Origin: Chrysomallon squamiferum
Lineage: Eukaryota; Animalia; Mollusca
DNA: 64,000 bases
Assembly: GCA_012295275.1 (NCBI GenBank)
Contig: CM022674.1
Coordinates: 124,001-188,000 of the forward strand
Direction of reading: 5' to 3'
Positions 13,391 to 17,650 of this stretch are shown piece after piece; positions within the stretch are counted from its first letter, which is position 1; each line of letters starts with the position of its first letter. The position numbers were made by a program, and so were the translations under genes. The notes beneath the pieces are model-generated. The model worked only from the letters and a program-made list of their open reading frames with translations, made no database searches and was not told the DNA's origin.

Positions 13391-13420
13391 TATAAATATA
13401 TAAAACAGTTCAGTTTCTAG
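13391..13420 (+). promoter_or_regulatory. TATA box / Inr-like core promoter of the secreted modular gene
   Basis: TATAAATATATAAAA at 13391-13405 and TCAGTT at 13410-13415, about 40-55 nt upstream of ccacaATG (13446). Confidence 0.55.
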
Positions 13421-13445
13421 TTATACCAGATCTTAAACAGCCACA

Positions 13446-13499
13446 ATGATGAAGGCATTTGTCGTAGTAGCTGTGGTTCTTCTTTTATGCCATCTTGCT
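13446..13499 (+). CDS. Secreted gene exon 1: signal peptide MMKAFVVVAVVLLLCHLA
   Basis: Basic residue plus hydrophobic core; donor gct|GTAAGT at 13500. Confidence 0.85.
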
Positions 13500-16400
13500 G
13501 TAAGTATATTTTGGTTCAGTGTGTAGAACATAGCTATAATTATCATTATCCGGCTTTCAGAAATAAGTATCTGGCGTGAAAGAGAGTATATCGTTTTTTA
13601 AAAATATGTGATGGGTAAGACAATAAAAATTATATATATATATATATATCATCTCTCTTTCAAGCGTCAGAATATTTCATAACGTTTTGGCGCTCATTTT
13701 GTAAACAATTAAGATGTTTCACAAACTCTAGGGTGTGAAGAAAATGTTGGTGTTAGTGTTTTTACTAAACTGTGTGTGACAGAGAAAAACGTGGCACATT
13801 AAAGTCGTTTATCAAATATTTCTCATATAGAGAATAAAACTCTCTCTCTCTCTCTCTCTCTCTCTCTCTCTCTCTCTCTCTCTCTCTCTCTCTCTCTCTC
13901 TCTCTCTCTCTCTCTCTCTCTCTCTCTCTCTCTCTCTCGTGTTTAGTTTTGTTTTAATCTCCGTGTCTTTCTTTAGTTTTTTTTTAAATGGGACTATATT
14001 GGCTAACTGATTTTAAAAATTAAAATAATCTTTAATTTTCATTTTTATTACTATATTTTATTTTTTATTGTTCATTTGTTTGTGTGTTTGTTAAAAGGGA
14101 TCTGAGACATACAGAAATCGGCACCATGGAAACGATCTTCAACCTCGAAAGGGCTGGAGTATCCAGAGTAATTGGAATCCTATCTGGCCTGTAAGAAAGT
14201 ATATACTTTATAAAACTATGTGGTGGGTAAGACAGTAATCGGAATCCTATCTGGCCTGTAAGAAAGTATATACTTTATAAAACTATGTGGTGGGTAAGAC
14301 AGTAATCGGAATCCTATCTGGCCTGTAAGAAAGTATATACTTTATAAAACTATGTGGTGGGTAAGACAGTAATCGGAATCCTATCTGGCCTGTAAGAAAA
14401 TATATACTTTATAAAACTATGTGGTGGGTAAGACAGTAATCGGAATCCTATCTGGCCTGTAAGAAAGTATATCCTTTATAAAACTATGTGGTGGGTAAGA
14501 CAGTAATCGGAATCCTATCTGGCCTGTAAGAAAGTATATACTTTATAAAACTATGTGGTGGGTAAGACAGTAATCGGAATCCTATCTGGCCTGTAAGACA
14601 GTATATCCTTCATAAAAATATGTGGTGGGTAAGACAGTAATCGGAATCCTATCTGGCCTGTAAGAAAGTATATCCTTTATAAAACTATGTGGTGGGTAAG
14701 ACAGTAATCGGAATCCTATCTGGCCTGTAAGAAAGAATATCCTTTATAAAACTATGTGGTGGGTAAGACAGTAATCGGAATCCTATCTGGCCTGTAAGAA
14801 AGTATATCCTTTATAAAACTATGTGGTGGGTAAGACAGTAATCGGAATCCTATCTGGCCTGTAAGAAAGTATATCCTTTATAAAACTATGTGGTGGGTAA
14901 GACAGTAATGCCGATCTTTCGTGTATAGCTTTGTTTCAATCTGCGTGTCTTTCTTTATGCTTTTTTAAATGGCACTACATTGGCTAATTATCTTTAAAAA
15001 TTAAAATAATATATAATTTTAATTTATTTTAACATTTCTTTTTTATTATTATTTATTTACTTCTTGTTTTTTTGTTGTTTTGTTGTTGTTGTTTTTTTTT
15101 GTTAAAAGGTATATGACCAAAAAAAGCCAAACATACAAGAACCGTATGGAAGTCGGCGGAGGAACAAAATGTACAGTGTTCGTTATAGAAAACGGAATCG
15201 ACATATTAACATCTGGCCTGTAAGAAAGTATATCCTTTATAAAACTATGTGGTGGGTAAGACAGTAATCGACATATTAATATCTGGCCTGTAAGAAAGTA
15301 TATCCTTTATAAAACTATGTGGTGGGTAAGACAGTAATCGACATATTAATATCTGGCGTGTAAGAAAGTATATCCTTTATAAAAATATGTGGTGGGTAAG
15401 ACAGTAATGCCGATTATAAAAAATAAAAATAATGTACATGTATGTATCATCTCTCTTTCAAGCGTCAGAATATTTCATAACGTTTTGGCGCTCATTTTGT
15501 AAACAATTAAGATGTTTCACAAACTCTAGGGTGTGAAGAAAATGTTGGTGTTAGTGTTTTTACTAAACTGTGTGTGACAGAGAAAAACGTGGCACATTAA
15601 AGTCGTTTATCAAATATTTCTCATATAGAGAATAAAAAACTCTCTCTCTCTCTCTCTCTCTCTCTCTCTCTCTCTCTCTCTCTCTCTCTCTCTCTCTCTC
15701 TCTCTCTCTCTCTCTCTCTCTCTCTCTCTCTCTCTCTCTCTCTCTCTCTCTCTCTCTCTTTTCTGTGTAGTTTTTGTTTTGTTTTTTGTTTTAGTTTATT
15801 TATTTTTATCTTTGTTAAAAGGAAGCTCAGAGACACACGACAAGAAAACCAGAAGCGCACAGGGGCACATTCAGCCATCTTCACCATGCCATGTTCATAA
15901 TTAGGTGGTTGAATCGAAATTGTTATATCTACCCGGTAAGAAGCTATATCGTTTATAAAAATGTGTGATGGCTAAATATAAATATATGTATATGTATGTA
16001 TCATCTCTCTTTCAAACGTCAGAATATTTCATAACCTTTTGGCGTACTGCTCATTTTGTAAACAATTAAGATGTTTCACAAACTTGAAGTTTCTCATATA
16101 GAGAATACAAATTCTCTCTCTCTCTCTCTCTCTCTCTCTCTCTCTCTCTCTCTCTCTCTCTCTCTCTCTCTCTCTCTCTCTCTCTCTCTCTCTCTCTCTC
16201 TCTCTCGTGTTTAGTTTTGTTTTAATCTCCGTGTCTTTCTTTAGCTTTTCTTTAAATGGGACTATATTGGCTAACTGACTTTAAAAATTAATATAATATT
16301 TAATTTTAATTTATTTTAACATTTCTTTTTTATTATTATTTATTTACTTCTTGTTTTTTTTTTTTGTTGTTGTTTGTTTTTGTTTGTTAATAGGTATATG

Positions 16401-17558
16401 ACCAAAAAAATCCAAACATACAAGAACCGTATGGAAGTCAGCGGAGGAACAAAATATACAGTGTTCGTTATAGAAAACGGAATCGACAAATTAAAATCTG
16501 GCGTGTAAGAAAGTATATCCTTTATAAAACTATGTGGTGGGTAAGACAGTAATCGACATATTAATATCTGGCGTGTAAGAAAGTATATCCTTTATAAAAA
16601 TATGTGGTGGGTAAGACAGTAATGCCGATTATAAAAAATAAAAATAATGTACATGTATATATCATCTCTCTTTCAAGCGTCAGAATATTTCATAACGTTT
16701 TGGCGCTCATTTTGTAAGCAATTAAGATGTTTCACAAACTCTAGGGTGTGAAGAAAATGTTGTGTTAGTGTTTTTACTAAACTGTGTGTGACAGAGAAAA
16801 ACGTGGCACATTAAAGTCGTTTATCAAATATCATTAATATTTCTCATATAGAGAATAAATCTCTCTCTCTCTCTCTCTCTCTCTCTCTCTCTCTCTCTCT
16901 CTCTCTCTCTCTCTCTCTCTCTCTCTCTCTCTCTCTCTCTCGTGTTTAGTTTTGTTTTAATCTCCGTGTCTTTCTTTAGCTTTTTTTTAAATGGGACTAT
17001 ATTGGCTGACTGACTTTAAAAATTAAAATAATCTTTAATTTTCATTTTTATTACTATTTTTAATTTTTTATTGTTCATTTGTTTGTGTGTTTGTTAAAAG
17101 GGATCTGAGACATACAAGCCAACAATTCAAAGAGCGCACAGAAATCGGCAAAGACCGTATGGAAGTCAGCTCAGGAAGCGTACACATCATGTTCGACCTA
17201 GAAGACAGAATAGTAATATCTTCCATGTAAGAAAGTATATCCTTTGTAAAAATATGTGGTGGCTAACAGACTTTAAAAACTGATACAATTTAATTTTTAT
17301 TACTATATATTTTTTTGTGAATTAATTTAGAAAAATAAAATATTAATTTTTGTTTTTTAATTTTTTAATTTTAATTTTATTATTATTTTTTGTTCTCAGG
17401 AAAGCGAGTTAATGCATGGGGAGACTGATAGCAGGGGACTGCACTCTGATCAAGAAGGAACGGGGGGAGGTTTCAGCGGGAACCAGTCTAGTGGACTTTC
17501 TGGATTTCGAGGCAAAAACGCGAGCTCGAACACAAGCGCTAGTGAGACGAAGACCTAA
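13446..17558 (+). CDS. Novel secreted modular cationic (Arg/Lys/His-rich) protein, 7 exons, about 255 aa
   Basis: Exons 13446-13499, 14098-14190, 15109-15219, 15822-15935, 16394-16504, 17101-17226, 17400-17558. All introns are GT-AG and phase 0, there are no internal stops, and the gene has a signal peptide, TATA box and AATAAA (17610). No family recognised. Confidence 0.85.
14098..14190 (+). CDS. Secreted gene exon 2 (module A): GSETYRNRHHGNDLQPRKGWSIQSNWNPIWP
   Basis: ttgttaaaAG| ... |GTAAGA; 93 nt, phase 0-0. Confidence 0.8.
14170..14908 (+). repeat. 11-copy 67-nt tandem array duplicating the exon-2 donor site
   Basis: AATCGGAATCCTATCTGGCCT|GTAAGAAAGTATAT..TGTGGTGGGTAAGACAGT; donors at 14191+67k up to 14861. 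Confidence 0.95.
15109..15219 (+). CDS. Secreted gene exon 3 (module B): VYDQKKPNIQEPYGSRRRNKMYSVRYRKRNRHINIWP
   Basis: gttaaaAG| ... |GTAAGA; 111 nt, phase 0-0. Donor re-duplicated at 15290 and 15360. Confidence 0.8.
15822..15935 (+). CDS. Secreted gene exon 4 (module C): EAQRHTTRKPEAHRGTFSHLHHAMFIIRWLNRNCYIYP
   Basis: ttgttaaaAG| ... ccg|GTAAGA; 114 nt, phase 0-0. Confidence 0.8.
16394..16504 (+). CDS. Secreted gene exon 5 (module B'): VYDQKNPNIQEPYGSQRRNKIYSVRYRKRNRQIKIWR
   Basis: gttaatAG| ... |GTAAGA; 111 nt; recent duplicate of exon 3. Confidence 0.8.
17101..17226 (+). CDS. Secreted gene exon 6 (module A'): GSETYKPTIQRAHRNRQRPYGSQLRKRTHHVRPRRQNSNIFH
   Basis: ttgttaaaAG| ... |GTAAGA; 126 nt, phase 0-0. 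Confidence 0.8.
17400..17558 (+). CDS. Secreted gene exon 7: ESELMHGETDSRGLHSDQEGTGGGFSGNQSSGLSGFRGKNASSNTSASETKT*
   Basis: tgttctcAG| acceptor; GC-richer coding-like sequence; TAA at 17556-17558; three N-X-S sequons. Confidence 0.8.
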   Translation, partial: ESELMHGETDSRGLHSDQEGTGGGFSGNQSSGLSGFRGKNASSNTSASETKT

Positions 17559-17609
17559 CAGACTCGGACAGATAGCCATTTTGTCTAATTCTCACGCGAC
17601 TTGTTGAGA

Positions 17610-17650
17610 AATAAATATTCCGTTTTCGTTTCTTTACTAGTTTTGTTTTT
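17610..17650 (+). terminator. Polyadenylation signal of the secreted gene
   Basis: AATAAA at 17610-17615, about 50 nt after the stop, followed by a T/GT-rich tract. Confidence 0.65.

Follow-up and report, generated by a model that had tools for sequence, protein, structure and literature searches.

Whether a short region of the Chrysomallon squamiferum genome encodes a genuine secreted protein, and what such a protein would do, is the question raised by positions 13391 to 17615 of a 64,000-nucleotide (nt) stretch of contig CM022674.1 (assembly GCA_012295275.1, positions 124,001 to 188,000, forward strand), hereafter the window. On its plus strand this locus carries a candidate secreted gene comprising a signal exon, five homologous phase-0 module exons (m1–m5, 93–126 nt) and a terminal exon of 52 codons, with a poly(A) site behind it; the predicted product has 255 amino acids (aa) and is encoded by seven coding exons, in phase 0 throughout. 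The same layout, from TATA box to AATAAA, had been proposed in a first-pass annotation of this DNA, and all coordinates agree. Judged from its sequence, the gene is apparently a real, undescribed, lineage-restricted member of a secreted gene family with an unusual multi-exon cationic core, and the locus illustrates clearly how exons can diversify while the introns between them are homogenised. The features are as follows (pI, isoelectric point).

13391..13396, plus strand: TATA box candidate (TATAAA), weak alone in DNA of 30% GC
13446..13499, plus strand: coding part of exon 1, with ATG at 13446 and 18 hydrophobic codons (54 nt); phase-0 donor GTAAGT at 13500, 6.25 bits
13516..13626, plus strand: end of a decayed sixth module in intron 1; the first donor has mutated from GT to GA and a TAG lies in frame at 13524; the second donor (13615) is intact
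13649..13938, plus strand: repeated intron block, about 190 nt plus a CT tract; copies at 15447–15759, 15999–16206 (shortened) and 16662–16941
14098..14190, plus strand: module exon m1, 93 nt, 31 aa, net charge +2, pI 10.0
14167..14909, plus strand: 67-nt minisatellite, 11.1 copies, whose unit is the m1 exon end plus both donors
14191..14226, plus strand: 36-nt in-frame extension after m1, up to a second donor at 14227; equivalents at 15220–15255 (m2) and 16505–16540 (m4)
15109..15219, plus strand: module exon m2, 111 nt, 37 aa, net charge +9, pI 11.0
15196..15408, plus strand: 70-nt repeat, three copies, of the m2 end plus donors; two further copies at 16481–16623, after m4
15822..15935, plus strand: module exon m3, 114 nt, 38 aa, net charge +4, pI 10.3, five His, weakest acceptor
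16394..16504, plus strand: module exon m4, 111 nt, 37 aa, net charge +9, pI 11.0
17101..17226, plus strand: module exon m5, 126 nt, 42 aa, net charge +10, pI 12.0, with the single furin-type site
17400..17558, plus strand: last coding exon, encoding a Gly/Ser-rich stretch of 52 aa and the stop, net charge -3, pI 5.05, 52% GC, strong acceptor
17610..17615, plus strand: AATAAA, followed downstream by a T/GT-rich tract

The acceptor motif said to be shared by the modules, TTGTTAA(A/T)AG, occurs exactly five times in the window, each time at this locus, and the modules end, as described, in NPIWP, INIWP, CYIYP, IKIWR and SNIFH. Their shared donor, GTAAGA, is present at the module ends; it is not unique to them, because the 67- and 70-nt minisatellites duplicate the exon end together with its donor, giving 35 copies in the six introns, 22 of them in intron 2. 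Exons after the first contain 17–22% T, compared with 35–50% in the introns, and this coding-like composition supports the gene model. The description of the modules as rich in Arg, Lys, His and aromatic residues and nearly free of Cys was likewise borne out: the modules consist of 16.8% Arg, 7% Tyr, 6.5% His, 6.5% Lys and 3.2% Trp, and contain one Cys and 4% Gly. Module pI ranges from 10.0 to 12.0 at lengths of 31–42 aa. Every module, like the tail, is placed on the disordered side by its charge and hydropathy, and the weakly acidic tail has three N-glycosylation sequons and no Tyr. A sequencing run (X1) considered below carries a His/Arg difference at position 17189 in m5.

Of the three sense frames, frame 0 alone stays open in every module; four modules are open in frame +1 and none in frame +2. 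The in-register antisense frame is open in five of five as well, and openness alone is therefore moderate evidence. Shuffled modules stay open 5–17% of the time, and the product of these values, 9e-5, overstates the case because the modules are homologous; under simulated neutral divergence a module stays free of stops with a probability of 0.13–0.63 across six settings. The four independent module lengths are all divisible by three (chance 1/81). Clean triplet gaps are confined to the m4/m5 alignment (15, 6 and 6 nt), and the other pairwise DNA alignments have mixed gap lengths. The signal of selection on the frame, which the first-pass annotation read from the combination of open exons and many indels, is real but moderate; the contrast with the decayed remnant in intron 1, described below, adds to it. 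Frame +1 was rejected as the true frame, with two stops in m3, a stop three codons into the terminal exon and a phase-0 junction in a paralogue.

Full copies of the 190-nt block, present in introns 1, 3 and 5, differ from one another at 0/192 and 2/190 sites, and the 159 nt ahead of m1 differ from those ahead of m5 at five sites; some repeated intron blocks are 97–100% identical, while some intron parts differ by 9–28%. Most exon pairs differ by 13–45% (m1/m5 at 10 of 75 sites, m4/m5 at 32 of 105, m3/m5 at 34 of 105, and at most 45 of 101 aligned sites), and the modules are 16–46% identical to m5. The youngest pair, m2/m4, has six substitutions in 111 sites, all of which change an amino acid. 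Exons are more diverged than their flanking introns in three of four pairs tested (Fisher p 0.007, 1e-5 and 1e-7), the tests covering 4 of the 10 pairs with flanks chosen by the analyst and with ambiguous T-rich alignments. The proportion of nonsynonymous differences (pN) exceeds that of synonymous differences (pS) in 9 of 10 module pairs, which suggests diversifying selection on the exons. Since m5 has its upstream intron and opening 16 nt in common with m1, but a block of 14–17 nt in common with m2 and m4, the modules look like recombinants. Over 66 nt the remnant in intron 1 matches the m4 boundary at 83% identity (E 3e-12; its 5′ part is suggestive only). It has a stop and a lost donor, neither of which occurs in the five module exons; its letters are identical in run X1. 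A derivation of the modules as chimeras of exon 1 and the terminal exon was rejected, as no significant similarity was found.

Evidence for a family came from four sequencing runs, compared as contigs with exon 1: X1, taken as DNA (its kind is unrecorded), and X2–X4, which are RNA of unrecorded tissue. Run X1, which carries 0.64 of the sequence words sought and may share its origin with the source of the window, contains this gene's exon 1 plus a second contig that matches 13453–13497 with 4 differences in 45 nt. This paralogous contig has its own in-frame ATG and runs five codons beyond the shared part before GTAAGT. In RNA run X4, one contig of 488 nt contains the same match and the extra codons, departs exactly at the GT and continues in frame with Thr-Pro-Gln-Pro, leaving about 436 nt of paralogue transcript downstream of the exon 1 match. 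Taken together, the X1 and X4 contigs bear the signature of an expressed, spliced paralogue with a phase-0 first intron. The junction, in phase 0 at the GT, validates the position and phase of the donor for the family and supports the donor at 13500; the present copy is 15 nt shorter and the frame is kept. A 132-nt exon 1 reaching 13577 was rejected: it contains a TAG and lacks a GT, as X1 confirms, whereas the paralogue has a donor that corresponds to the one at 13500. The 18-aa hydrophobic exon 1 probably encodes a signal peptide, as sequence and paralogue both indicate, and the gene belongs to a family in which the signal is conserved and the exon after it differs. A search for expression listed no RNA data set that carries the gene. 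In the contigs of runs X2–X4, m5, the terminal exon and exon 1 of this copy are uncovered, a result that lacks a positive control and weighs neither way. A 470-nt contig of X1 also matches the TATA region at 13367–13404 (38 nt, 4 differences), which may reflect the promoter of a paralogue or a coincidence between AT-rich sequences. Within the window, the 20 nt at 8306–8325 are 95% identical to the last part of the signal exon (E 5.5e-4), probably by chance.

Splice sites were scored against the 23 homology-predicted introns of the neighbouring gene EMC1, whose donors range from -1.3 to 9.6 bits under leave-one-out. The six donors of the candidate gene (5.2–8.3 bits) lie within this range, and the terminal-exon acceptor reaches 13.5 bits. 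A CTRAY branch-like site is located at -95 to -125 before m1, m2, m4 and m5 (four of the five acceptors; the copies are homologous), and the same four modules are preceded by AG-free zones of 119–178 nt, compared with 18–171 nt in EMC1; only 2.4% of the AGs in the window reach 90 nt. The second donor, 36 nt past m1, m2 and m4, scores 8.5 bits versus 5.2–6.5 for the first donors of these modules, and its use (14227, 15256 and 16541) would keep the frame and add 12 basic and aromatic residues. It is missing after m3 and m5, and the stretch following m3 contains a stop. This second in-frame donor was overlooked in the first-pass annotation, as were the decayed sixth module and the weakness of the module acceptors. 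Arrays comparable to the donor minisatellites overlap 3 of the 46 splice sites of EMC1 and the acceptor of an upstream exon with UBA-like domains; because they also lie at splice sites of the intact EMC1, they are a habit of this genome that an intact gene tolerates, and the idea that the minisatellite is a special device was rejected.

Database searches gave no relative of this gene. Pfam matched none of six exons in frame 0 and none of four in frame +1, and a hidden Markov model (HMM) of the five modules found no credible homologue among 1.84 billion representatives. Its sole hit, P0026 (E 8.6e-5), an unnamed protein that carries short repeats of QRPYGS and lacks a signal peptide, was rejected as chance. 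Comparison of the signal read-through and the terminal exon with longer proteins, both weak tests, matched 0 of 8 and 0 of 34 candidates; 0 of 598 and 0 of 78 stretches of metagenome contigs matched; and ESM Atlas (for m5 and m4), PDB and Rfam returned nothing. The absence of a recognisable family, noted at first from the letters alone, thus extends to all libraries searched. No description of the gene was found in the accessible literature, including PMC11871041, PMC7142155 and PMC9156901. Short motifs of the gene were absent from three of four supplements of PMC11871041 and 12 of 13 of PMC7142155, whose visible parts consist of gene identifiers or repeat units, and those supplements may hold an annotated gene model or a proteome hit. 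The genome of PMC7142155 has 2415 unannotated gene models, and this gene may be among them. A literature search on accelerated exons with conserved introns gave no result, and searches of the accessible literature pairing each sequenced peltospirid snail with 'antimicrobial peptide' returned nothing on the snails' own peptides.

Each design element of the gene has a published precedent: a variable cationic core between a signal and an acidic tail, repeats that each occupy a single exon, and repetitive introns that have been homogenised. Their combination in a vent snail was not found in the literature and databases searched. Vertebrate SCPP genes such as the histatins and statherin have a signal exon, short phase-0 exons and a disordered product, with His/Arg-rich members that are antimicrobial or bind minerals; they form a SPARCL1-derived cluster characterised by a Ser-x-Glu motif. 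The present gene shares the signal exon and phase-0 coding introns with them. Its exon translations lack Ser-x-Glu on inspection, its host is a mollusc and its neighbours are UBA-domain and SLC6 genes, and the resemblance is convergent.

The myticalins, linear cationic antimicrobial peptide precursors of mussels, have a conserved signal, a variable cationic core of 23–42 aa (pI >11, >10% Arg), a Lys-Arg site and an anionic tail of 35–75 aa; signal and mature peptide lie on one exon, a phase-1 intron interrupts the tail, amidation is frequent and the family is restricted to Mytiloida (PMC5577615). As in myticalins and modiocalins, the gene encodes hypervariable, Arg-rich, Cys-poor cationic segments of comparable size (31–42 aa, with pI 11.0, 11.0 and 12.0 for m2, m4 and m5 and 10.0 and 10.3 for m1 and m3), belongs to a multigene family missed by annotation, has a signal that is conserved within its own family (4 differences in 45 nt from the paralogue), and ends in an anionic, weakly acidic C-terminal extension, here of 52 aa (net -3, pI 5.05). 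It differs in having five segments, each on its own phase-0 exon, rather than one, and seven coding exons; in lacking a Lys-Arg site before the tail; in giving no sequence match for modules or tail; and in its host, a neomphaline gastropod rather than a member of Mytiloida. Nasonin-6 of Nasonia (PMC2853521) is likewise a defence-type precursor with four or five repeats, one per exon, and without protease processing signals, but its repeats are disulfide-bonded defensin-like domains separated by phase-1 introns, whereas the modules here are linear, disordered and in phase 0. In the MaSp2 and flagelliform silk genes of Argiope (PMC9779670), near-identical introns delimit the repeats and are thought to guide unequal crossing-over. 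The coding repeats of MaSp2 are homogenised too (introns 97.6% alike, coding repeats 93.5% mean identity), whereas here the exons diverge between intron blocks that are 97–100% alike.

We have a tentative preference, held at somewhat below an even chance, for a lineage-restricted, myticalin-like (not a myticalin) secreted, disordered, cationic host-defence precursor that was expanded by exon duplication. We favour it because a conserved signal is joined to variable cores, the modules are suitable in size and charge, the tail is acidic and the repeats have diversified. The gene would have grown by unequal crossing-over of intron-plus-exon units, and shared intron blocks that kept recombining would have produced mosaic modules. 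The precursor would be secreted with its acidic tail as a neutralising propiece and, since no processing site marks the module borders, might act largely uncut or be trimmed within modules, binding bacterial surfaces at mucus-covered epithelia. The weak acceptors probably allow in-frame skipping of modules. The annotators' proposal of a lineage-specific secreted gene built from duplicated cationic exons is supported by the spliced phase-0 signal exon of the paralogue, the composition, the branch-like sites and AG-free zones, and the lack of a database relative; release of the modules as separate peptides finds no support, and nothing points to the toxin-like role that had also been suggested.

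Several observations weigh against a defence precursor. The paralogue junction is seen in one contig, 13 letters past the joint, with the acceptor outside the visible part; splicing of this copy is inferred, and the junction of the paralogue does not bear on it directly. The acceptors of m1–m5 score -0.5, 2.5, -4.5, 4.1 and -0.5 bits against 0.2–13.0 in EMC1, and four of the five have A at -3, where all 23 EMC1 introns have C or T. The m2/m4 exon is not more diverged than its introns (p 0.64), no excess of pN over pS is significant (p 0.22 and 0.05–0.13) among pairs that are not independent, and gene conversion among introns can explain their likeness without selection on the exons. On the side of the product, the pI of m1 (10.0) and m3 (10.3) falls short of the value of 11 that myticalins exceed, amphipathicity as a helix is modest (best moment 0.39–0.63), and a disordered sequence rich in Arg and aromatics fits adhesives and matrices equally well. 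Every dibasic site is internal to a module, with none in the last six residues of any module or in the tail, and there is no Lys-Arg site ahead of the acidic tail or between modules, so that dibasic cuts would fall within modules. A neat polyprotein is unlikely because the dibasic pairs are internal and the furin-type site occurs in m5 only, which runs counter to the earlier suggestion of peptides released at basic clusters.

The contrast between weak module acceptors and a very strong terminal acceptor could also mean that the modules are mostly skipped or decaying, the working product being a 70-aa peptide of exon 1 and the terminal exon, or that this copy is a young pseudogene. One module is already dead (intron 1), 35 donor-like sites compete, pN near or above pS fits relaxed selection too, and open frames would survive by chance at 0.13–0.63 per lineage. 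Decay alone, however, does not predict exons that are more diverged than introns; five exons of four different lengths are all in frame and stop-free, and splice-site minisatellites are tolerated in the intact EMC1 next door. We regard this account as unlikely.

The composition of the product and its lack of cleavage sites at module borders might instead indicate a structural or adhesive protein of the periostracum, shell, scale, mucus or egg-capsule matrix, which would condense through contacts between Arg and aromatic residues and bind anions, chitin-associated acidic proteins or, via His, metals. We consider this rather doubtful. Disordered modules and tail, with Arg 16.8%, Tyr 7%, His 6.5% and Trp 3.2%, would suit such a role, as would the Gly/Ser-rich tail, and basic matrix proteins are known in molluscs: KRMP of Pinctada (PMC4498902), a secreted basic protein, likewise combines a cationic part with a C-terminus rich in Gly. 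It is unlike the present product in being about 100 aa long and Lys-rich with a Gly/Tyr tail and pI 9.5–9.8, as opposed to Arg 16.8% versus Lys 6.5%, five modules and an acidic Gly/Ser tail. Also counted for a matrix role are that 12 of 49 uncharacterised shell and sclerite proteins of the scaly-foot snail are species-specific (PMC11871041) and that its scale is about 95% non-chitin (PMC9156901). Yet the modules are diversified, not homogenised, they contain just 4% Gly without a KRMP-like Gly/Tyr block, and a signal shared with a differently continuing paralogue would rather be expected in a family of defence or signalling peptides.

Lineage restriction would also fit a reproductive or signalling secretion (a gamete coat, seminal or pheromone protein) with modules diverging under sexual selection. 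Gastropod gamete-recognition proteins do combine fast exon divergence with high cationic charge. The library searches revealed no sequence or structural link to such proteins, however, and the product shows no neuropeptide-type pattern of dibasic sites flanking each repeat with an amidation Gly; we judge this explanation to be very improbable.

An extension of the defence-precursor reading is that one gene serves as a combinatorial library of cationic defence peptides, with the near-identical introns as recombination handles that keep shuffling half-modules, within a family that chooses or polices the snail's bacteria. Weak phase-0 acceptors and the second in-frame donor would then give m1, m2 and m4 three states each and m3 and m5 two each, and thereby as many as 108 splice forms that keep the frame. 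This is, in our estimate, quite unlikely.

The gene lies among the following features.

1569..1968, plus strand: terminal exon with UBA-like domains (Pfam), upstream of the gene
19410..33700, plus strand: SLC6 sodium:neurotransmitter symporter gene, downstream; two of four pieces match Pfam SNF
35866..55307, minus strand: EMC1, intact, 24 exons, 976 aa (homology model, no internal stops)

The EMC1 model is 80.0% identical to that of Gigantopelta aegis, 61.3% to Haliotis and 44.6–54.8% to ten others; its last exon is 90% identical to Gigantopelta aegis, the best of 25 hits. These identities place the host among the neomphaline snails, as an animal distinct from that G. aegis record. The gene contains arrays of 105 nt (7.8 copies) and 83 nt (7.0 copies) that overlap the acceptor at 49163 and the donor at 54007. 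A 42-nt array comprises 4.7 copies of the acceptor and first codons of the UBA-like exon, which presumably resembles the C-terminus of ACK/TNK2 kinases. The SLC6 region holds a 21-nt array (44 copies, 25733–26653) and a 60-nt array (6.6 copies, 30519–30911). An 18-nt satellite of about 91 copies (11124–12732) ends 700 nt upstream of the gene start, and the plus strand at about 9100–9800 looks, on visual reading, like the degraded coding remains of a retroelement, a candidate only.

If the modules are skipped, the locus would be a small secreted gene with duplicated debris, of little interest. A matrix protein could account for some of the protein in the hard tissues of vent snails that is still uncharacterised. 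If the gene encodes a defence precursor, it would represent a first candidate linear cationic peptide family of the symbiont-dependent peltospirid snails, and the shared signal exon may serve as a probe for retrieving the whole family.

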